DNA from: Escherichia coli
Lineage (GTDB): Bacteria > Pseudomonadota > Gammaproteobacteria > Enterobacterales > Enterobacteriaceae
Direction: 5' to 3' (one strand)
NCBI RefSeq assembly: GCF_030013595.1
Contig: NZ_CP122768.1
DNA length: 64,000 bases
Both the position numbers and the translations under genes were made by a program. Under the pieces are notes generated by a model that saw only the letters and a list, made by a program, of their open reading frames with translations, was not told the DNA's origin and did no database searches. This document shows, one piece after another, positions 11,940 to 45,719 of the stretch (position 1 is its first letter; each line of letters opens with the position of its first letter).

Positions 11940-13523
11940 TCACACCTCGTACTCCATCTCGCCATCCTTACGCAGCGGTATAATCTGCACCTTCTGCACG
12001 CGATGGCTTTCTACCTGCAACGTTTTAAGCAAATAATCCCCCACCTGAACTTCTTCGCCAGGTTTTGGAATACGCTGCAAATACTCCATCAACAGCCCGG
12101 CAATGGTGTGATATTCACGTTTTTCATCCAGCGGCAGCGGCACATATTGCACCAGATCCTCCAGCGGCATATGACCATTCGCCGTCCAGGAACCGTCCGC
12201 ATTCTTCTGAATATCATGGCGGGCGTCGATCTCTTCCACTTCGTTCGGTAAGTTACCGGCAATGGTTTCAGTGACGTCACTTAATGTCACAATCCCTTCC
12301 ACCGAGCCAAACTCATCCACCACAAAAGCAAAGTGCGTGCGGGCATTACGGAACTGCTCCAGGGCAGGTAACAACGGCAAGGTTTCCGGGAACACCAGCG
12401 GCTGGCGAATCAACACCCGCAGGTTGAGCGGTTCGCCGCGCAGAGACTGTTGTAGCAGGTCGATAACGTGAACAACACCGAGCAAATCTTCTGCGTCATC
12501 ACCGTCGGTAACCACCAGCCGCGTATGCTGATTTCGCTCCAGCAACTGGTGGATCTCGTCTTCCGGCGCGTTGAGATCGATATGCTCAATATCGTGGCGC
12601 GACGTCATAATGCTGCTGACGGTACGCTGGTTAAGATTTAGTACCCGCTCAATCATCCGCCGTTCCTGCGGATTAAAGATCTGCTGGTTACCATGATCCA
12701 CCAGCATGGACGCGGTTTCGGCGTCCAGTTCCGCATCTTCTTTTTGCCCGCTAAGCAGGCGCATTACCGCTTCGGTAGTCCGCTGGCGCAGCGTCTGGTT
12801 AGCGGAAAGAAAACGTCGCCGGTTAAAGATAGCCAACTGATTGAGCGCCTCGATCATCACCGAGAAACCAATGGCAGCGTACAGGTAGCCTTTCGGAATG
12901 ACGAAGCCGAAACCTTCTGCCACCAGGCTAAAGCCAATCATCAACAGGAAGCTTAAGCAGAGAATAACGATCGTCGGGTGACTGTTAACAAATTGCGTTA
13001 ACGGCTTGCTGGCCATCAACATCAGGCTGATAGCGATAACCACGGCGGCCATCATGACCAGTAAATGGTCGACCATCCCGACGGCGGTAATCACTGAGTC
13101 GAGTGAGAAAATGGCGTCCAGTACCACAATTTGCGTCACCACGCCCCAGAACTTCGCACCTTTGCGTTGTGTGGGATTATTGCTGTCTTTCCCTTCCAGC
13201 CGTTCGTTCAGCTCCATCGTGGCTTTGAACAACAGGAAGAAACCACCAAACAGCATGATTAAGTCGCGGGCACTAAAGGTAAACGAGCGGAAGCTGAACA
13301 GCGGTTGAGTCAGGGTGACCAGCCAGGAGATTGACGCCAGCAGTAACAGGCGCATTAACATTGCCAGCAGCAGCCCGGTAACCCGTGCGCGGTCACGCTG
13401 CTTCGGCGGTAGTTTTTCGGCGAGGATGGCAATAAAGACCAGGTTATCAATGCCGAGGACCAGTTCGATCACAATCAGCGTGATTAACCCGGCCCAGATA
13501 GACGGATCGGCAATCCATTCCAT
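11940..13523 (-). CDS. yegH: TerC-family membrane protein with CBS and CorC/HlyC transporter-associated domains
   Basis: ORF-track 549 aa trimmed to [34 protein letters not shown] (527 aa); TerC-like N-terminus, CBS-pair region. Confidence 0.85.
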
Positions 13524-13684
13524 AGTAAGTACAAAACCTATTCGTTGTATGACAAATGTCACAATTCGATCATGGATAAATCGGGGCAAAAATGCAATGT
13601 TGCAGCACTATTTATCTCATATTATTTGAGGGTAATAACCTCACATTATCCCTGAATTAAAAGTGGTAATAATAAAACATTATT

Positions 13685-13698
13685 TAAGAAATATCGCA
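13685..13698 (+). promoter_or_regulatory. Candidate RcsAB box upstream of the cps promoter
   Basis: taagaaatatcgca resembles the RcsAB-box consensus (TaAGaatatTCctA) as I recall it; located in the AT-rich region upstream of wza. Match is partial. Confidence 0.3.
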
Positions 13699-13964
13699 TG
13701 TGGAGGCGCAATATTAAATATTGTCAACCTAAAGAAACTCCTAAAAACCATATTGAATGACACTTAATATAATTCTTAAAAATAGCCAATTGCCGAATTG
13801 TTACCTTGCCTGCTATTCCGTTAGCTGTAACACTTCCTCCTGCATTATTGGAGAGCCAATATTCAATTACCATAATGTCACCTTATATTCGGAAGTTAAT
13901 TTCCGCAATAACCCTTTCTCATCAACGATTGTATGCTGAGAGGGTGTGAAAAATTAAGCTAAAT

Positions 13965-14003
13965 CAGTGTATTGGTAGCTAAAAAGCCAGGGGCGGTAGC
14001 GTG
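13965..14003 (+). promoter_or_regulatory. JUMPStart element containing ops (RfaH recruitment site) in the wza leader
   Basis: cagtgtattggtagctaaaaagccaggggcggtagcgtg; contains GGCGGTAGCGTG; near-identical 39-bp element also at 40062. Confidence 0.85.
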
Positions 14004-14181
14004 TCTGGATGCCTGAAAGACCAGTCTGAATTATTCTGTCAATAGCCTGCGGATGAAATCAATTTTTTTAGGACTGATGCCAGTTAAATTTTTATTCAAT
14101 TAACTGCAAGGTAAATGTGCATGGCGACATTGCTATTAATAGTGCACAGGATAATTACTCTGCCAAAGTGATAAATAAACA

Positions 14182-15321
14182 ATGATGAAATCCAAAATGA
14201 AATTGATGCCATTATTGGTGTCAGTAACCTTGATAAGCGGTTGCACAGTACTTCCGGGCAGCAATATGTCGACGATGGGCAAAGACGTCATCAAACAGCA
14301 GGACGCTGATTTCGATCTCGACAAAATGGTGAATGTTTATCCGTTGACCCCGCGCCTGATTGACCAATTACGTCCACGACCCAACGTAGCGCGCCCCAAT
14401 ATGACGCTGGAAAGCGAGATCGCGAATTACCAGTATCGCGTCGGGCCGGGCGACGTTCTGAATGTCACCGTCTGGGATCACCCGGAACTCACCACGCCAG
14501 CCGGTCAGTACCGCAGCTCCAGTGACACCGGCAACTGGGTACAGCCTGACGGCACTATGTTTTACCCGTATATCGGCAAGGTTCACGTAGTCGGGAAAAC
14601 GCTCGCTGAAATCCGCAGTGATATTACCGGGCGCTTAGCGACGTACATCGCTGACCCGCAGGTGGACGTTAATATCGCCGCCTTCCGCTCACAAAAGGCC
14701 TATATCTCCGGACAGGTGAATAAATCCGGTCAACAGGCGATCACCAACGTACCACTGACCATTCTCGACGCCATCAACGCCGCAGGTGGCCTGACCGACA
14801 CCGCTGACTGGCGCAACGTGGTGCTAACACACAATGGTCGTGAAGAACGCATTTCTTTGCAGGCGCTGATGCAAAACGGCGACCTCAATCAGAACCGACT
14901 GCTTTATCCCGGCGATATTCTCTACGTGCCGCGTAATGATGATCTGAAAGTGTTTGTGATGGGTGAAGTGAAGAAACAGAGCACCCTGAAAATGGACTTT
15001 AGCGGCATGACCCTGACTGAAGCCCTGGGCAATGCCGAAGGTATCGACATGACCACCTCCAACGCCAGCGGCATCTTTGTCATTCGTCCGCTGAAAGGCG
15101 AGGGCGGGCGTAATGGCAAGATTGCCAATATCTACCAGCTGGATATGTCCGATGCGACGTCGCTGGTGATGGCGACAGAATTCCGCCTGCAACCTTATGA
15201 CGTGGTGTATGTCACCACCGCCCCGGTTTCCCGCTGGAACCGTCTGATCAATCAGTTGCTGCCAACTATTAGCGGTGTCCGTTACATGACGGATACAGCC
15301 AGCGACATTCATAACTGGTAA
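14182..15321 (+). CDS. wza: Colanic acid outer-membrane polysaccharide export lipoprotein
   Basis: 379 aa; lipoprotein signal [21 protein letters not shown]; first gene of cps cluster. Confidence 0.93.
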
Positions 15322-28378: not shown

Positions 28379-28380
28379 AC

Positions 28381-28660
<280 letters not shown>

Positions 28661-28746
28661 AATGCGAAACCGCGGTGTAAATAATGACAAAAACAAAATT
28701 GGCCGTTTCGGTCAGGGCCAACTATTGCCTGAAAAAGGGTAACGAC

Positions 28747-33074: not shown

Positions 33075-33552
33075 GCCGGGTGCAGCGTAAAACGCCTTAT
33101 CCATCCTACGGTTCTGTGCTCGGGACCTGTAGGCCTGATAAGACGCGTCAGCGTCGCATCAGGCACTGAATGCCGGATGCGGCGTGAACGCCTTATCCGG
33201 CCTACGGTTCAGGGCTTGGATCTTGTAGGCCCGATAAGACGCGCCAGCGTCGCATCAGGCACTGAATGCCGGATGCGGCGTAAAACGCCTTATCCGGCCT
33301 ACGGTTCTGTGCTCGGGTCTTGTAGGCCTGATAAGACGCGCCAGCGTCGCATCAGGCACTGAATGCCGGATGCGGCGTGAACGCCTTATCCATCCTACGG
33401 TTCTGTGCTCGGGACCTGTAGGCCTGATAAGACGCGTCAGCGTCGCATCAGGCACTGAATGCCGGATGCGGCGTGAACGCCTTATCCGGCCTACGGTTCT
33501 GTGCTCGGGTCTTGTAGGCCTGATAAGACGCGGCCAGCGTCGCATCAGGCAA
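33075..33552. repeat. BIME array: about five tandem REP-pair units (~86-106 bp period)
   Basis: cgtcgcatcaggcactgaatgccggatgcggcg recurs at ~33153, 33259, 33345, 33440, 33540; overlapping ORF-track ORFs in both strands are artefacts. Confidence 0.9.
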
Positions 33553-37671: not shown

Positions 37672-38667
37672 ATGAACGATAACGTTTTGCTCATAGGAGC
37701 TTCCGGATTCGTAGGAACCCGACTACTTGAAACGGCAATTGCTGACTTTAATATCAAGAACCTGGACAAACAGCAGAGCCACTTTTATCCAGAAATCACA
37801 CAGATTGGTGATGTTCGTGATCAACAGGCACTCGACCAGGCGTTAGCCGGTTTTGACACTGTTGTGCTACTGGCAGCGGAACACCGCGATGACGTCAGCC
37901 CTACTTCTCTCTATTATGATGTCAACGTTCAGGGTACCCGCAATGTGCTGGCGGCCATGGAAAAAAATGGCGTTAAAAATATCATCTTTACCAGTTCCGT
38001 TGCTGTTTATGGTTTGAACAAACACAACCCTGACGAAAACCATCCACACGACCCTTTCAACCACTACGGCAAAAGTAAGTGGCAGGCAGAGGAAGTGCTG
38101 CGTGAATGGTATAACAAAGCACCAACAGAACGTTCATTAACCATCATCCGTCCTACCGTTATCTTCGGTGAACGGAACCGCGGTAACGTCTATAACTTGC
38201 TGAAACAGATCGCTGGCGGCAAGTTTATGATGGTGGGCGCAGGGACTAACTATAAGTCCATGGCTTATGTTGGAAACATTGTTGAGTTTATCAAGTACAA
38301 ACTGAAGAATGTTGCCGCAGGTTATGAGGTTTATAACTACGTTGATAAGCCAGACCTGAACATGAACCAGTTGGTTGCTGAAGTTGAACAAAGCCTGAAC
38401 AAAAAGATCCCTTCTATGCACTTGCCTTACCCACTAGGAATGCTGGGGGGCTATTGTTTTGATATCCTGAGCAAAATTACGGGCAAAAAATACGCTGTCA
38501 GCTCAGTGCGCGTGAAAAAATTCTGCGCAACAACACAGTTTGACGCAACGAAAGTGCATTCTTCAGGTTTTGTGGCACCGTATACGCTGTCGCAAGGTCT
38601 GGATCGAACTCTGCAGTATGAATTCGTTCATGCCAAAAAAGACGACATAACGTTTGTTTCTGAGTAA
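37672..38667 (+). CDS. gnu: NAD-dependent 4-epimerase of the Gne/Gnu family (GlcNAc-PP-Und to GalNAc-PP-Und)
   Basis: 331 aa; MNDNVLLIGASGFVGTRLLETA Rossmann start, YxxxK (YGKSK) catalytic motif; location between wcaM and galF as in several non-K-12 E. coli serogroups; composition more AT-rich than flanking genes. Confidence 0.75.
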   Translation: MNDNVLLIGASGFVGTRLLETAIADFNIKNLDKQQSHFYPEITQIGDVRDQQALDQALAGFDTVVLLAAEHRDDVSPTSLYYDVNVQGTRNVLAAMEKNGVKNIIFTSSVAVYGLNKHNPDENHPHDPFNHYGKSKWQAEEVLREWYNKAPTERSLTIIRPTVIFGERNRGNVYNLLKQIAGGKFMMVGAGTNYKSMAYVGNIVEFIKYKLKNVAAGYEVYNYVDKPDLNMNQLVAEVEQSLNKKIPSMHLPYPLGMLGGYCFDILSKITGKKYAVSSVRVKKFCATTQFDATKVHSSGFVAPYTLSQGLDRTLQYEFVHAKKDDITFVSE

Positions 38668-38909: not shown

Positions 38910-39803
38910 ATGACGAATTTAAAAGCAGTTATACCGGTAGCAGGTCTTGGGATGCATATGTTGCCTGCCACTAAGGCGATTCCCAAAGAGATGCTACCGA
39001 TCGTCGACAAGCCAATGATTCAGTACATTGTTGACGAGATTGTGGCTGCAGGGATCAAAGAAATCCTCCTGGTAACTCATGCGTCCAAGAACGCGGTCGA
39101 AAACCACTTCGACACCTCTTATGAATTAGAATCTCTCCTTGAACAGCGCGTGAAGCGTCAACTACTGGCGGAAGTACAATCTATCTGTCCGCCGGGCGTG
39201 ACCATTATGAACGTGCGTCAGGGTGAACCTTTAGGTTTAGGCCACTCCATTTTATGTGCGCGACCTGCCATTGGTGACAATCCATTTGTCGTGGTGCTGC
39301 CAGACGTTGTGATCGACGACGCCAGCGCCGACCCGCTACGCTACAACCTTGCTGCCATGATTGCGCGCTTCAATGAAACGGGCCGTAGCCAGGTGCTGGC
39401 AAAACGTATGCCGGGTGACCTCTCTGAATACTCCGTCATCCAGACCAAAGAACCGCTGGACCGTGAAGGCAAAGTCAGCCGCATTGTTGAATTTATCGAA
39501 AAACCGGATCAGCCGCAAACGCTGGACTCAGACATCATGGCCGTAGGTCGTTATGTGCTTTCTGCCGATATTTGGCCGGAACTTGAACGCACTCAACCTG
39601 GTGCATGGGGGCGTATTCAGCTGACTGATGCTATTGCCGAACTGGCGAAAAAACAGTCCGTTGATGCCATGCTGATGACTGGTGACAGCTACGACTGTGG
39701 TAAAAAAATGGGCTATATGCAGGCATTCGTGAAGTATGGATTACGCAACCTGAAAGAAGGGGCGAAGTTCCGTAAAGGGATTGAGAAGCTGTTAAGCGAA
39801 TAA
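38910..39803 (+). CDS. galF: UTP-glucose-1-phosphate uridylyltransferase paralogue
   Basis: 297 aa; [43 protein letters not shown]. Confidence 0.95.
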
Positions 39804-40061
39804 TGAAAATCTGACCGGATGTAACGGTTAATAAGAAAATTATAACGGCAGTGAGGATTCGTGGCGAAAGTAATTTGTTGCGAATATTCCTGCCGTTGTT
39901 TTATATAAACAATCAGAATAACAACGAGTTAGCAATAGGATTTTAGTCAAAGTTTTCCAGGATTTTCCTTGTTTCCAGAGCGGATTGGTAAGACAATTAG
40001 CTTTTGAATTTTTCGGGTTTAGCGCGAGTGGGTAACGCTCGTCACATCGTAGGCATGCATG

Positions 40062-40100
40062 CAGTGCTCTGGTAGCTGTAAAGCCAGGGGCGGTAGCGTG
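40062..40100 (+). promoter_or_regulatory. JUMPStart element with ops site upstream of the O-antigen operon
   Basis: cagtgctctggtagctgtaaagccaggggcggtagcgtg; contains GGCGGTAGCGTG; 76 bp upstream of rfbB start. Confidence 0.88.
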
Positions 40101-40175
40101 CATTAATACTTCTATTAATCAAACTGAGAGCCGCTTATTTCACAGCATGCTCTGAAGCAATATGGAATAAATTAG

Positions 40176-41261
40176 GTGAAAATACTTGTTACTGGTGGCG
40201 CAGGATTTATTGGTTCTGCTGTAGTTCGTCACATTATAAATAATACGCAGGATAGTGTTGTTAATGTCGATAAATTAACGTACGCCGGAAACCTGGAATC
40301 ACTTGCTGATGTTTCTGATTCTGAACGCTATGTTTTTGAACATGCGGATATTTGCGATGCAGCTGCAATGGCACGGATTTTTGCTCAGCATCAGCCAGAT
40401 GCAGTGATGCACCTGGCTGCTGAAAGCCATGTTGACCGTTCAATTACAGGTCCTGCGGCATTTATTGAAACCAATATTGTTGGTACATATGTCCTTTTGG
40501 AAGCCGCTCGCAATTATTGGTCTGCTCTTGATAGCGACAAGAAAACTAGCTTCCGTTTTCATCATATTTCTACTGACGAAGTCTATGGTGATTTGCCTCA
40601 TCCTGACGAGGTAAATAATACAGAAGAATTACCCTTATTTACAGAGACAACAGCTTACGCGCCAAGCAGCCCTTATTCCGCTTCAAAAGCATCCAGCGAT
40701 CATTTAGTCCGCGCGTGGAAACGTACCTATGGTTTACCAACCATTGTGACTAATTGCTCTAACAATTATGGTCCTTATCATTTCCCGGAAAAATTGATTC
40801 CATTGGTTATTCTCAATGCTCTGGAAGGTAAGGCATTACCTATTTATGGCAAAGGGGATCAAATTCGTGACTGGCTGTATGTTGAAGATCATGCGCGTGC
40901 GTTATATACCGTCGTAACCGAAGGTAAAGCGGGTGAAACTTATAACATTGGTGGACACAACGAAAAGAAAAACATCGATGTAGTGCTCACTATTTGTGAT
41001 TTGCTGGATGAGATTGTACCGAAAGAGAAATCTTACCGCGAGCAAATTACTTATGTTGCCGATCGCCCGGGACACGATCGCCGTTATGCGATTGATGCAG
41101 AGAAGATTAGCCGCGAATTGGGCTGGAAACCGCAGGAAACGTTTGAGAGCGGGATTCGGAAGACAGTGGAATGGTACCTGTCCAATACAAAATGGGTTGA
41201 TAATGTGAAAAGTGGTGCCTATCAATCGTGGATTGAACAGAACTATGAGGGCCGCCAGTAA
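40176..41261 (+). CDS. rfbB: dTDP-glucose 4,6-dehydratase
   Basis: 361 aa, GTG start; [31 protein letters not shown] catalytic motif. Confidence 0.95.
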
Positions 41262-42163
41262 TGAATATCCTCCTTTTCGGCAAAACAGGGCAGGTAGGTT
41301 GGGAACTACAGCGTGCTTTGGCACCTTTAGGTAATTTGATTGCTCTTGATGTTCACTCCACTGATTATTGTGGTGATTTTAGTAATCCTGAAGGTGTAGC
41401 TGAAACAGTCAAAAGAATTCGACCTGATGTTATTGTTAATGCTGCGGCTCACACCGCAGTAGATAAGGCTGAGTCAGAACCCGAATTTGCACAATTACTC
41501 AATGCGACTAGTGTTGAATCAATTGCAAAAGCGGCTAATGAAGTTGGGGCTTGGGTAATTCATTACTCAACTGACTACGTATTCCCTGGAAATGGCGACA
41601 CGCCATGGCTGGAGACGGATGCAACCGCACCGCTAAATGTTTACGGTGAAACCAAGTTAGCCGGAGAAAAAGCGTTACAGGAACATTGCGCGAAGCATCT
41701 TATTTTCCGTACCAGCTGGGTATACGCAGGTAAAGGAAATAACTTCGCCAAAACGATGTTGCGTCTGGCAAAAGAGCGCGAAGAACTGGCTGTGATAAAT
41801 GATCAATTTGGTGCGCCAACAGGTGCTGAGCTGCTGGCTGATTGTACGGCACATGCTATTCGTGTGGCACTGAATAAACCGGAAGTCGCAGGTTTGTACC
41901 ATCTGGTAGCCAGTGGTACCACAACCTGGCACGATTATGCTGCGCTGGTTTTTGAAGAGGCGCGCAAAGCAGGTATTCCCCTTGCACTCAACAAGCTCAA
42001 CGCAGTACCAACAACAGCCTATCCTACACCAGCTCGTCGTCCACATAACTCTCGCCTTAATACAGAAAAATTTCAGCAGAACTTTGCGCTTGTCTTGCCT
42101 GACTGGCAGGTTGGTGTGAAACGAATGCTCAACGAATTAATTACGACTACAGCAATTAAATAG
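41261..42163 (+). CDS. rfbD: dTDP-4-dehydrorhamnose reductase
   Basis: 300 aa; [20 protein letters not shown]. Confidence 0.95.
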   Translation: MNILLFGKTGQVGWELQRALAPLGNLIALDVHSTDYCGDFSNPEGVAETVKRIRPDVIVNAAAHTAVDKAESEPEFAQLLNATSVESIAKAANEVGAWVIHYSTDYVFPGNGDTPWLETDATAPLNVYGETKLAGEKALQEHCAKHLIFRTSWVYAGKGNNFAKTMLRLAKEREELAVINDQFGAPTGAELLADCTAHAIRVALNKPEVAGLYHLVASGTTTWHDYAALVFEEARKAGIPLALNKLNAVPTTAYPTPARRPHNSRLNTEKFQQNFALVLPDWQVGVKRMLNELITTTAIK

Positions 42164-42217
42164 TTTTTGCATCTTGTTCGTGATGGTGGAGCAAGATGAA
42201 TTAAAAGGAATGATGAA

Positions 42218-43096
42218 ATGAAAACGCGTAAAGGTATTATTTTAGCGGGTGGTTCTGGTACACGTCTTTATCCTGTGACTATGGCTGTCAGTAAACAGCT
42301 ATTACCTATTTATGATAAGCCGATGATCTATTACCCGCTCTCTACACTGATGTTGGCGGGTATTCGCGATATTCTGATTATTAGTACGCCACAGGATACT
42401 CCTCGTTTTCAACAACTGCTGGGTGACGGTAGCCAGTGGGGGCTAAATCTTCAGTACAAAGTGCAACCGACTCCAGATGGGCTTGCGCAGGCGTTTATTA
42501 TCGGTGAAGAGTTTATCGGTGGTGATGATTGTGCTTTGGTTCTTGGTGATAATATCTTCTACGGTCATGATCTGCCGAAGTTAATGGATGTCGCTGTTAA
42601 CAAAGAAAGTGGTGCAACGGTATTTGCCTATCACGTTAATGATCCTGAACGCTACGGTGTCGTTGAGTTTGATAAAAACGGTACGGCGATCAGCCTGGAA
42701 GAAAAACCGCTACAACCAAAAAGTAATTATGCGGTAACCGGGCTTTATTTCTATGATAACGACGTTGTCGAAATGGCGAAAAACCTTAAGCCTTCTGCCC
42801 GTGGTGAACTGGAAATTACCGATATTAACCGTATTTATATGGAACAGGGGCGTTTATCCGTTGCCATGATGGGGCGTGGTTATGCATGGCTGGATACGGG
42901 GACACATCAGAGTCTTATTGAAGCAAGCAACTTCATTGCCACCATTGAAGAGCGCCAGGGACTAAAGGTTTCCTGCCCAGAAGAAATTGCTTACCGTAAA
43001 GGGTTTATTGATGCTGAACAGGTGAAAGCATTAGCGGAGCCGCTGAAAAAAAATGCTTATGGACAGTATCTGCTGAAAATGATTAAAGGTTATTAA
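42218..43096 (+). CDS. rfbA: Glucose-1-phosphate thymidylyltransferase
   Basis: 292 aa; [17 protein letters not shown]. Confidence 0.95.
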
Positions 43097-43100
43097 TAAA

Positions 43101-43658
43101 ATGAACGTAATTAAAACAGAAATTCCTGATGTGTTAATTTTCGAGCCGAAAGGTTTTGGTGATGAGCGTGGTTTCTTTATGGAAAGCTTTAATCAGAAAG
43201 TTTTCGAAGAAGCTGTAGGACGTAAGGTTGAATTTGTTCAGGATAACCATTCGAAGTCTAGTAAAGGTGTTTTACGCGGGCTGCATTATCAGTTAGAACC
43301 TTATGCGCAAGGGAAATTGGTACGTTGCGTTGTTGGTGAGGTTTTTGATGTAGCTGTTGATATTCGTAAATCGTCGCCTACCTTTGGTAAATGGGTTGGG
43401 GTGAATTTATCTGCTGAGAATAAGCGGCAATTGTGGATCCCTGAGGGATTTGCACATGGTTTTTTGGTGCTGAGCGAGACTGCGGAATTTTTATATAAAA
43501 CGACGAACTATTATCATCCTGATAGTGATAGAGGGATTGTATGGAATGATCCTATTCTGAGCATAAAATGGCCGACGATAGAACATAATAATTATATTTT
43601 ATCGATTAAAGATGCAAGGGCTAAAGAATTGCATAACATGAAGGAATTATTTTTGTGA
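43101..43658 (+). CDS. rfbC: dTDP-4-dehydrorhamnose 3,5-epimerase
   Basis: 185 aa; cupin-fold sequence VLRGLHYQLEPYAQGKLVRCVVGEVFDVAVDIR. Confidence 0.95.
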   Translation: MNVIKTEIPDVLIFEPKGFGDERGFFMESFNQKVFEEAVGRKVEFVQDNHSKSSKGVLRGLHYQLEPYAQGKLVRCVVGEVFDVAVDIRKSSPTFGKWVGVNLSAENKRQLWIPEGFAHGFLVLSETAEFLYKTTNYYHPDSDRGIVWNDPILSIKWPTIEHNNYILSIKDARAKELHNMKELFL

Positions 43659-44887
43659 GTATTGTAAAGAATACTTTATGGAATATAAGTGGGTATATTA
43701 TACCATCATTAATAGCAATTCCTGCGTTAGGTATACTGTCTAGAATTCTAGGGGCCGAGCAATTTGGCCTTTTTACGTTAGCTATTGCCTTAGTTGGATA
43801 TGCAAGTATTTTTGATGCTGGATTGACCAGAGCTGTTATAAGAGAAGTATCAATATATAAAAATGTTCATAAAGAATTAAGATCGATCATTTCAACTTCA
43901 ACGGTAATTCTAACTATATTGGGCTTGATTGGCGGTAGTGTATTATTTTTGAGTAGCAATGTAATTGTTAAATTATTAAACATTAACGCGAATCATGTTG
44001 TAGAATCTGTCAAAGCAATATATATTATTTCAGCTACCATACCCTTATACTTGTTAAACCAAGTCTGGTTGGGGATTTTTGAGGGGATGGAAAAGTTCAG
44101 AAAAGTAAATTTAATAAAATCAATTAACAATTCTTTTGTGGCTGGATTACCAGTGATTTTCTGTTTTTTTCATGGAGGATTACTAAGTGCCATATATGGT
44201 TTAGTTATGGCAAGAGTCTTATCACTTATAGTGACCTTTATATTTAGTCGAAAACTAATAATATCATCTGGGCTGTCTGTAAAAATTGTAACAGTTAAAA
44301 GATTAATCGGCTTTGGAAGCTGGATAACAGTTAGCAATATTATTAGCCCTATTATGACATATATGGATCGTTTTATTCTTTCACACATTGTGGGGGCTGA
44401 TAAAGTTTCTTTTTATACTGCTCCGTCTGAAGGTATACAACGCTTAACGATATTACCAAGTGCGTTGTCCAGAGCTATTTTTCCAAGATTAAGTTCAGAA
44501 TTGCAATCGGTAAAGCAAACTAAAATATTATCATATTTTATAATGGTTATTGGTATACTTCCAATTGTAATTTTGATAATTATTTTATCAGATTTTATAA
44601 TGTCCGCTTGGATGGGACCTACATATCATGGGACGCCAGGTATAGTATTAAAAATTCTTGCAATAGGTTTCTTTTTTAATTGCATTGCACAAATCCCATT
44701 TGTTTCAGTTCAGGCTAGTGGAAGATCAAAAATTACAGCTATTATTCATTTGCTCGAAGTTATCCCATATTTATGCATATTATATATTTTTATTTATCAT
44801 TGGGGAATTGTTGGAGCCGCAATAGCATGGTCTGTAAGAACATCGTTAGATTTTTTGATATTATTATTAATTGATAAGAAATATTAA
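43655..44887 (+). CDS. wzx: O-antigen flippase (Wzx family polytopic membrane protein)
   Basis: 410 aa, GTG start overlapping rfbC stop; strongly hydrophobic, many predicted TM helices; visibly AT-rich codon usage. Confidence 0.8.
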   Translation: MSIVKNTLWNISGYIIPSLIAIPALGILSRILGAEQFGLFTLAIALVGYASIFDAGLTRAVIREVSIYKNVHKELRSIISTSTVILTILGLIGGSVLFLSSNVIVKLLNINANHVVESVKAIYIISATIPLYLLNQVWLGIFEGMEKFRKVNLIKSINNSFVAGLPVIFCFFHGGLLSAIYGLVMARVLSLIVTFIFSRKLIISSGLSVKIVTVKRLIGFGSWITVSNIISPIMTYMDRFILSHIVGADKVSFYTAPSEGIQRLTILPSALSRAIFPRLSSELQSVKQTKILSYFIMVIGILPIVILIIILSDFIMSAWMGPTYHGTPGIVLKILAIGFFFNCIAQIPFVSVQASGRSKITAIIHLLEVIPYLCILYIFIYHWGIVGAAIAWSVRTSLDFLILLLIDKKY

Positions 44888-44942
44888 TAGCGAATTGATT
44901 TTAGGGATTACTTCCTCAAGCCCATCTAATTAGAGTGCAAAC

Positions 44943-45719
44943 ATGACTTCTGATTTTTATAACTCAAAAGACAAAAGTTTAAGTGTTCTTTTGTTTTTTG
45001 GGTTTATATTTTTCCTTACACGTAGCTTTCCATTTATTCAATATAGTTGGATTATGGGGGGGTTTTTATGTCTTTGTATCATGTCATTTACAAAGAAAAT
45101 TGCAAACGGAATATATCACTATCCTGTTATTTTAATATTTCTATTAGCTCTTTTTATAAATTTTATTTATTCCTATATCAAGGGTAACGATATAGCGATA
45201 ATAATTAGGTTTTATATTATCATATTATTTATATTATGTGCTTATTTTTGCTCTTATGGAACCATCTCGATTGTTAAAATATTTTTATATTTAATGGTAT
45301 TACAGGCGGTTATTATATCCATCATTAGTATTTATATGACAAAAACATATGGTATTGGTGATTATTCAGCACTAAGACATTATTTTTTGGAGAATGATTA
45401 TGGTGATGTTTATACATATGGAAGTGGTTTCTATAGAGTTCAAATTAAAGGAAATGCTCTCATTCCATTTGCCTTTATGTTGCATATAGTCATAAAAGAT
45501 TATTTCTATTATCGATTCAAAAATACAATAACCGTTATTCTGGCTATAGGTACTATAGTGGCTGGTAATTTTGCATATTTTGTTTCGATATGCTTGTTTT
45601 TTATGTATATTATACTATGTTCTAAATCTAACTCACGATACGCTAAATTAAGGAAAATTATTTTTGGGGTTTTTCTTACTGTGATTCTCCCTTTTTTATT
45701 ACATATTCAATTGAGTTGA
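44943..45719 (+). CDS. wzy: Wzy-like O-antigen polymerase, N-terminal portion (258 aa); likely the first part of a frameshifted gene
   Basis: Very hydrophobic, multiple TM helices with one larger loop (YGIGDYSALRHYFLENDYGDVYTYGSGFYRVQIKGN); too short for a complete Wzy. Confidence 0.5.
   Translation: MTSDFYNSKDKSLSVLLFFGFIFFLTRSFPFIQYSWIMGGFLCLCIMSFTKKIANGIYHYPVILIFLLALFINFIYSYIKGNDIAIIIRFYIIILFILCAYFCSYGTISIVKIFLYLMVLQAVIISIISIYMTKTYGIGDYSALRHYFLENDYGDVYTYGSGFYRVQIKGNALIPFAFMLHIVIKDYFYYRFKNTITVILAIGTIVAGNFAYFVSICLFFMYIILCSKSNSRYAKLRKIIFGVFLTVILPFLLHIQLS

Follow-up and report, generated by a model that had tools for sequence, protein, structure and literature searches.

Two 39-nt sequences in the leaders of the colanic-acid (cps) and O-antigen (rfb) operons of an Escherichia coli O147 strain are, with high confidence, JUMPstart elements whose 3′ third is the 12-nt ops signal, which loads RfaH for anti-termination of both operons. 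The analysis itself covered the identity of the sequences, their position and strand, their membership of the family and their orthology to loci bound by RfaH; the mechanism comes from the literature. The window, by which we mean the entire analysed stretch of 64,000 nucleotides, comprises the yegH–cps–galF–rfb–gnd–ugd–his region, and its serogroup-specific genes matched only 6 of 5,426 complete genomes, each with at least 99.9% identity and annotated as O147. A preliminary description of this DNA had reported two near-identical 39-mers, and this was borne out by a repeat finder applied to the whole window, which grouped the cps-leader copy at 13965-14003 (+; CAGTGTATTGGTAGCTAAAAAGCCAGGGGCGGTAGCGTG) and the rfb-leader copy at 40062-40100 (+; CAGTGCTCTGGTAGCTGTAAAGCCAGGGGCGGTAGCGTG) in one repeat family (D7) with 34 of 39 positions identical (87%). 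The five mismatches (T/C, A/T and T/C, followed by A/G and A/T) fall at exactly those positions that the preliminary description had written as degenerate. The Rfam JUMPstart family (RF01707; gathering score, 35) matched the cps copy with 57.3 bits (window-wide E-value of 1.6e-10) and the rfb copy with 60.0 bits (2.6e-11), and its covariance model covered both 39-mers at full length (model 1-38), with coordinates identical to those of the repeats. Alignment of the DNA flanking the two copies revealed no similarity outside the 39-mer. Since these flanks are unalignable, the 39-mer constitutes an island of conservation rather than a piece of duplicated DNA.

Each 39-mer ends with GGCGGTAGCGTG, so that the earlier assertion that both copies contain the ops motif holds: exact 12-mers are found at 13992-14003 (+) for cps, starting 190 nt 5′ of the wza ATG, and at 40089-40100 (+) for rfb. 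When one mismatch was allowed, these two sites were the only matches in the window (0.35 expected from shuffled sequences). Both copies match the ops consensus GGCGGTAGnnTG, including G4, G5, T6, A7 and G8 and the pause-inducing T11 and G12. Both ops sequences are located on the non-template strand, with the elements and all downstream genes sharing the + strand. Both elements are intergenic and lie outside any real open reading frame (ORF), and consensus promoter scans of these leaders gave weak results. The 8-mer GGCGGTAG occurs six times in the window versus 1.3 times expected; the four additional occurrences (2498-, 13405+, 26702+ and 43931+) were rejected as ops sites because they are situated in coding DNA and carry two to three mismatches to the 12-mer. 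The last of these belongs to the ops-like sequence GGCGGTAGTGTA at 43931-43942 (+) inside wzx, on the non-template strand of the rfb operon, with the mismatches C9T and G12A. Within each JUMPstart, the hexamer GGTAGC is present twice, 21 nt apart (13974-13979 and 13995-14000; 40071-40076 and 40092-40097). The upstream hexamer covers the 5′ stem arm and loop of the hairpin described below and has the ops core bases G4-C9 without the pause-inducing flanks; its T is not kept in the Aeromonas and Idiomarina versions. Downstream of ops, YCTGR is frequent across genera (CCTGAT, CCTGAA, TCTGGA and others), being present in the cps copy (14004-14009, TCTGGA) and absent from the rfb copy (CATTAA).

The cps element is embedded in a 592-nt gap of 35% GC between yegH (-) and wza and ends 178 nt 5′ of wza (ATG at 14182), and the rfb element is embedded in the 372-nt galF-rfbB gap and ends 75 nt 5′ of rfbB (GTG at 40176). 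The assignment of wza and rfbB as the downstream genes agrees with the annotation of identical genomes. The colanic-acid operon wza-wzb-wzc-wcaA...wcaM (14182-37514, +), delimited from ORFs, annotation and a gap table, comprises 20 same-strand genes in 23.3 kb. The O147 O-antigen operon (40176-47845, +; ORFs and annotation) extends over 7.7 kb with a GC content of 36% and consists of rfbBDAC, wzx, wzy and two glycosyltransferase genes. Two untranslated gaps interrupt the cps operon, 368 nt between cpsB and cpsG and 565 nt between wzxC and wcaK, and both are occupied by tandem REP/BIME arrays (Rfam naRNA4, six matches) at 28380-28660 and 33124-33550, where Rho could act. A need for anti-termination is plausible because of these REP-filled untranslated gaps and the AT-rich, foreign-type rfb DNA. 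The rfaH gene is a core gene of E. coli and is located outside the window.

The region displayed further features. An Rfam algC RNA motif (78 bits) was detected at 28693-28742 (+), directly 5′ of the start of cpsG (phosphomannomutase), and a match to the enterobacterial small RNA STnc240 (68 bits) at 63266-63340 (+). The O147 O-antigen polymerase gene wzy is broken into two ORFs (44943-45719 and 45716-46129); its T-tract at approximately 45692-45697 contains six T here and seven in CV839-06 and UMNF18, whose wzy is intact (395 amino acids). The split reflects either a sequencing error in the homopolymer or a genuine frameshift, in which case the O antigen would be single-unit. Two further genes, which encode a GlcNAc-P-P-undecaprenol 4-epimerase (5′ of galF; 37672-38667, +) and an NAD-dependent epimerase (after ugd; 50837-51841, -), are not part of the rfb unit controlled by ops; synthesis of the O147 sugar precursors probably requires both.

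Occupancy of the orthologous loci by RfaH is known from chromatin immunoprecipitation sequencing (ChIP-seq) in E. coli CFT073. RfaH was found on the O-antigen unit in the wild type and on wza-wcaM only in a Δhns ΔstpA strain (Hustmyer et al. 2022, PMC9765446), its absence from wza-wcaM in the wild type being due to silencing of the promoter by H-NS. In the supplementary table of the same study, the wza ops of CFT073 is given as GGCGGTAGCGTG with its start 190 nt 5′ of wza, and the O-antigen ops follows the start of its transcription unit by 67 nt; the study also reports that functional ops sites are confined to leaders (PMC9765446). Thus, CFT073 and the strain investigated here have an identical ops 12-mer, which is equally far (190 nt) from wza. 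Homology also covers the segment between galF and ops, which the O6 strain UPEC 536 matches at 97.7%. The distance from the ops start to the first O-antigen gene is 87 nt here compared to 71 nt in CFT073, as the serogroup differs (O147, with rfbBDAC first). Reviews also describe colanic-acid production as regulated by RfaH.

In the published mechanism, polymerase pauses at ops position U11, and the non-template ops strand forms a hairpin (G2:C9, C3:G8 and G4:A7) from which G5 and T6 are flipped out (PMC5995543, PMC11001881). Recruitment of RfaH needs G4, G5, A7 and G8, and the pause needs T11/G12 (PMC5995543); every base published as needed for either step is present in both copies. Autoinhibited RfaH recognizes the hairpin, opens, binds polymerase and persists through the operon, where it counteracts both pausing and termination by Rho and brings in the ribosome through its refolded KOW domain. 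Applied to these leaders, transcription would begin at an intergenic promoter 5′ of each element, the cps promoter being Rcs-activated and H-NS-silenced and the rfb promoter being situated inside the galF-rfbB gap. Polymerase transcribing ops would halt at U11, and the exposed non-template GGCGGTAGCGTG would form the small DNA hairpin that displays G5/T6. Autoinhibited RfaH would read this hairpin, open and take NusG's place on polymerase, after which it would ride through the operon, reducing pausing and Rho-dependent termination and coupling polymerase to ribosomes. Because RfaH remains bound, expression would reach the distal genes in both the 23-kb cps unit and the 7.7-kb, AT-rich rfb unit. 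According to the preliminary description, the two elements directly show that both operons are long RfaH-dependent units. The sequence tests and the CFT073 ChIP-seq data support this reading; however, "directly shows" was an overstatement, since sequence reveals a signal and not dependence, and we infer the RfaH dependence of the operons in this strain by analogy. The cps unit is normally silent (H-NS-repressed and Rcs-activated), and because RfaH was seen on CFT073 cps only in the Δhns ΔstpA strain, its ops is idle in ordinary growth until the Rcs system or a loss of H-NS switches on the promoter.

The two elements had also been proposed as anchor points for promoters located upstream, and the position of the CFT073 O-antigen ops, 67 nt downstream of the start of its unit, indicates that the promoter of the O-antigen unit is indeed upstream. 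The promoter coordinates given here are of low confidence, as the counts from consensus scans were no better than those for shuffled sequences. For the cps leader, the scan returned a single weak match, fewer than in the shuffles, namely the candidate sigma-70 promoter TGGAGA-16-CATAAT at 13849-13876 (+), 5′ of JUMPstart. On the opposite strand of this AT-rich promoter region, RefSeq annotates a 49-amino-acid hypothetical protein (13724-13873, -) in many genomes, which is probably a spurious call. Further upstream, a candidate RcsAB box of low confidence, TAAGAAATATCGCA, is found at 13685-13698 (+) 5′ of the cps promoter. It is the single match to the loose core TAAGA-N4-TC-N2-A in 13401-14200 and resembles the Klebsiella box TAAGATTATTCTCA (PMC3438125); the strict RcsAB consensus gave no match in the cps leader with up to three mismatches. 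On the + strand between galF and the rfb JUMPstart, no consensus promoter was found above the threshold, and the sole + strand match in the rfb leader scan (39781-39810) overlaps the 3′ end of galF, with a count no better than in shuffles. A candidate rfb promoter below the scan threshold, TTGTTT-17-GACAAT at 39969-39997 (+), was read from the sequence, likewise with low confidence. The start that it implies would be near 40004 and the leader 172 to 173 nt long, also with low confidence. This length agrees with the 173-nt leader that Marolda and Valvano are said to have described in 1998 for the O7 cluster. Transfer of the 67-nt distance from CFT073 would place the rfb start near 40022, and the start derived from the candidate promoter lies 18 nt upstream of that position. 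All of these predicted sites, the candidate promoters as well as the RcsAB box, are located 5′ of the elements, as the model requires. The elements fix the 5′ ends of both polysaccharide transcription units for annotation and tell experimenters in which area to search for promoters and which genes are expected to show polarity when rfaH is mutated.

The 5′ half of JUMPstart contains a hairpin, for which the Rfam consensus structure gives a 5-bp stem (cUGGu/gCCAg) and a 9-nt loop. It corresponds to UUGGU, the 9-nt loop AGCUAAAAA and GCCAG in the cps copy (13972-13990, +; Rfam structure, register and covariation) and to CUGGU, the 9-nt loop AGCUGUAAA and GCCAG in the rfb copy (40069-40087, +; Rfam structure and folding). 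One of the five differences between the copies converts the outer C-G pair of the rfb stem to U-G in cps. The predicted energies are -2.1 kcal/mol for cps and -4.1 kcal/mol for rfb, and that of the his pause hairpin treated below is -4.6 kcal/mol. For the rfb hairpin, pair probabilities were 0.6 to 0.87 in the RNA free to fold when polymerase pauses at ops; the cps hairpin was marginal, with a predicted probability of 0.03 to 0.86 depending on the assumed 5′ end. Folding of the 39-mers and of 91-nt contexts in comparison to shuffled sequences gave no support for structure (z = -0.03 to -0.99). In both copies, one unpaired G lies between the stem and ops G1, so that at the U11 pause the RNA 3′ end is 12 nt beyond the 3′ base of the stem.

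Conservation of this register was assessed by a scan for GGGGCGGTAGCGTG in one genome per species, which yielded at least 120 loci and did not force a stem; a perfect 5-bp stem ending at the first G of the match was scored as in register. Among the matches listed, 32 of 40 gamma-proteobacterial sites not within a long ORF showed a perfect stem in register, compared to 1 to 9 of 40 for other registers. The non-gamma-proteobacterial matches listed, mostly within long ORFs, had a stem in register in 10 of 62 cases and did not distinguish it from other registers. The latter were discarded, since among the matches listed they behave as chance occurrences, inside long ORFs and without the hairpin register. 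The stems are diverse, with at least 17 distinct sequences (e.g., CUGGU/GCCAG, CAGGU/GCCUG, CAGGA/UCCUG, CAAGA/UCUUG and UGAUG/CAUCG) and loops of 6 to 13 nt across leaders among the matches listed. In Pseudomonas, Stutzerimonas and Marinobacterium (seven loci) as well as Nitrincola and Marinobacter (three loci each), the upstream sequence is unrelated and a 5-bp hairpin is found in the same register; examples of these variant ops hairpins are CAGGA-12/13 nt-UCCUG and CAAGA...UCUUG. When 24 elements from enterobacteria, Aeromonas and Idiomarina were aligned to assess covariation, 90.8% of the stem cells were paired, a value as high being reached in 0 of 500 shuffles. Double changes occurred at two stem pairs (U-A to A-U; U-G to A-U, G-C and C-G), and the frequent G-U pairs argue that the sense strand forms the structure. 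An alternative pairing of the conserved 5′ CAG with the loop CUG was rejected, as its 79% of paired cells arose mostly from conservation and was roughly matched when the alignment was slid by three columns. Weinberg et al. 2010 described a conserved stem-loop in JUMPstart and nothing beyond this.

These properties of the stem could suggest that JUMPstart acts chiefly as RNA, with the stem-loop as a cis-regulatory element (e.g., for protein binding or stability) and ops in a secondary role. Rfam indeed lists JUMPstart among RNA motifs and draws a 5-bp stem, this stem shows covariation and holds its register in 32 of 40 gamma-proteobacterial leaders among the matches listed, and the G-U pairs point to a sense-strand structure. 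We nevertheless consider an RNA-level role of this kind very unlikely, because the invariant part of the element is ops, which has been demonstrated structurally and genetically to work as non-template DNA. In addition, ops alone is sufficient to recruit RfaH in vitro on templates without native upstream sequence (PMC5995543, PMC11001881), and the hairpin has little predicted stability (-2.1 and -4.1 kcal/mol), with a whole-element folding z of -0.03 compared to shuffles.

Conservation of the leaders bears on two other explanations. In 4,818 of 5,426 complete E. coli genomes, the cps leader was matched along 80% or more of its length, and the rfb leader matched 2,950 to 3,660 genomes, among them K-12 MG1655 at 96.7%. 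In clusters that do not have rfbB as the first gene, the BLAST match ended at query positions 296 to 299, equivalent to window positions 40099-40102, in 12 of 16 sampled genomes. Because the inter-serogroup match ends there in these genomes, the 3′ edge of the rfb ops (40100) is the left border of serogroup-specific DNA. It might be argued that the repeat is mainly a recombination landmark for the exchange of O-antigen clusters and not a regulatory site, as in the genomes mentioned the homology breaks off no more than 2 nt from the 3′ end of the rfb copy. This is extremely unlikely: a homology edge follows from conservation beside a variable cluster, and a landmark would leave unexplained both the cps copy, which is flanked on either side by conserved DNA in 4,818 genomes, and the presence of JUMPstart in other operons and genera. 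The homology break at the rfb ops is therefore best read as following from conservation, not as serving a function of its own. That the cps copy is an inactive relic, with the rfb copy alone being functional, would fit the silence of cps under standard conditions, the lack of RfaH at this locus in wild-type CFT073 and the weaker cps hairpin with its U-G first pair. However, RfaH is present on CFT073 wza-wcaM once the promoter is de-repressed, the cps ops is exact within a leader conserved species-wide, and colanic-acid production has been described as RfaH-regulated, which leaves the relic explanation a negligible probability. Hence, we retain the reading of both copies as RfaH-loading JUMPstart/ops elements.

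In both JUMPstart copies, the 3′ base of the stem is located 12 nt before U11. Hairpin-stabilized (class I) pauses have a working distance of 11 to 12 nt (PMC4227799). The his leader in the same window (60404-60527, -) offers a direct comparison, as its pause hairpin (60481-60511, -) consists of CCUGA, an 8-nt loop and UCAGG, with 11 nt to the pause U. The his and JUMPstart hairpins share a 5-bp stem, a loop of 8 to 9 nt and a subsequent consensus pause U followed by G, and the spacers from stem to pause are 11 nt (his) and 12 nt (JUMPstart to ops U11). Since a covarying stem at a fixed register has his-like geometry, we tentatively propose that native ops may be a hybrid pause that is established by the DNA signal, with the JUMPstart hairpin in the exit channel prolonging it or limiting backtracking; we regard this as possible but doubtful. 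A longer ops pause would widen the loading window for scarce RfaH. RfaH is reported to suppress hairpin-stabilized pausing and could for that reason then release the hairpin-held complex. A literature search found no paper linking the JUMPstart hairpin to ops pausing. On a published in vitro template, polymerase can be stopped at ops G5 by leaving out UTP (PMC11001881), which suggests that this template is missing the native upstream sequence with its U residues. Against a role in pausing stand the weakness of the hairpin, the dependence of the cps pair probability on the 5′ end, folding no better than that of shuffles and the classification of ops as hairpin-independent. If the hairpin does modulate the ops pause, in vitro work on ops without native upstream RNA would have studied an incomplete signal. 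The fixed-register hairpin is the one point of possibly wider importance in this analysis and might repay experiment.

Compared to known systems, the resemblance between JUMPstart and the his leader is only geometric: his is a class I, hairpin-stabilized pause, whereas ops has been described as class II, i.e., backtrack-stabilized and hairpin-independent (PMC5995543). The closest known element is JUMPstart itself (Hobbs and Reeves 1994; RF01707) together with ops (Bailey, Hughes and Koronakis 1997), which is the same 39-nt element with the same invariant GGCGGTAGCGTG. JUMPstart/ops signals in these leaders were already known, and the present reading is correct but ordinary. As known for JUMPstart/ops, both ops copies precede long envelope-polysaccharide operons, and the known elements occur in the same E. 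coli leaders (colanic acid and O antigen) and in the same orientation as the two copies in the window, with no difference of substance.
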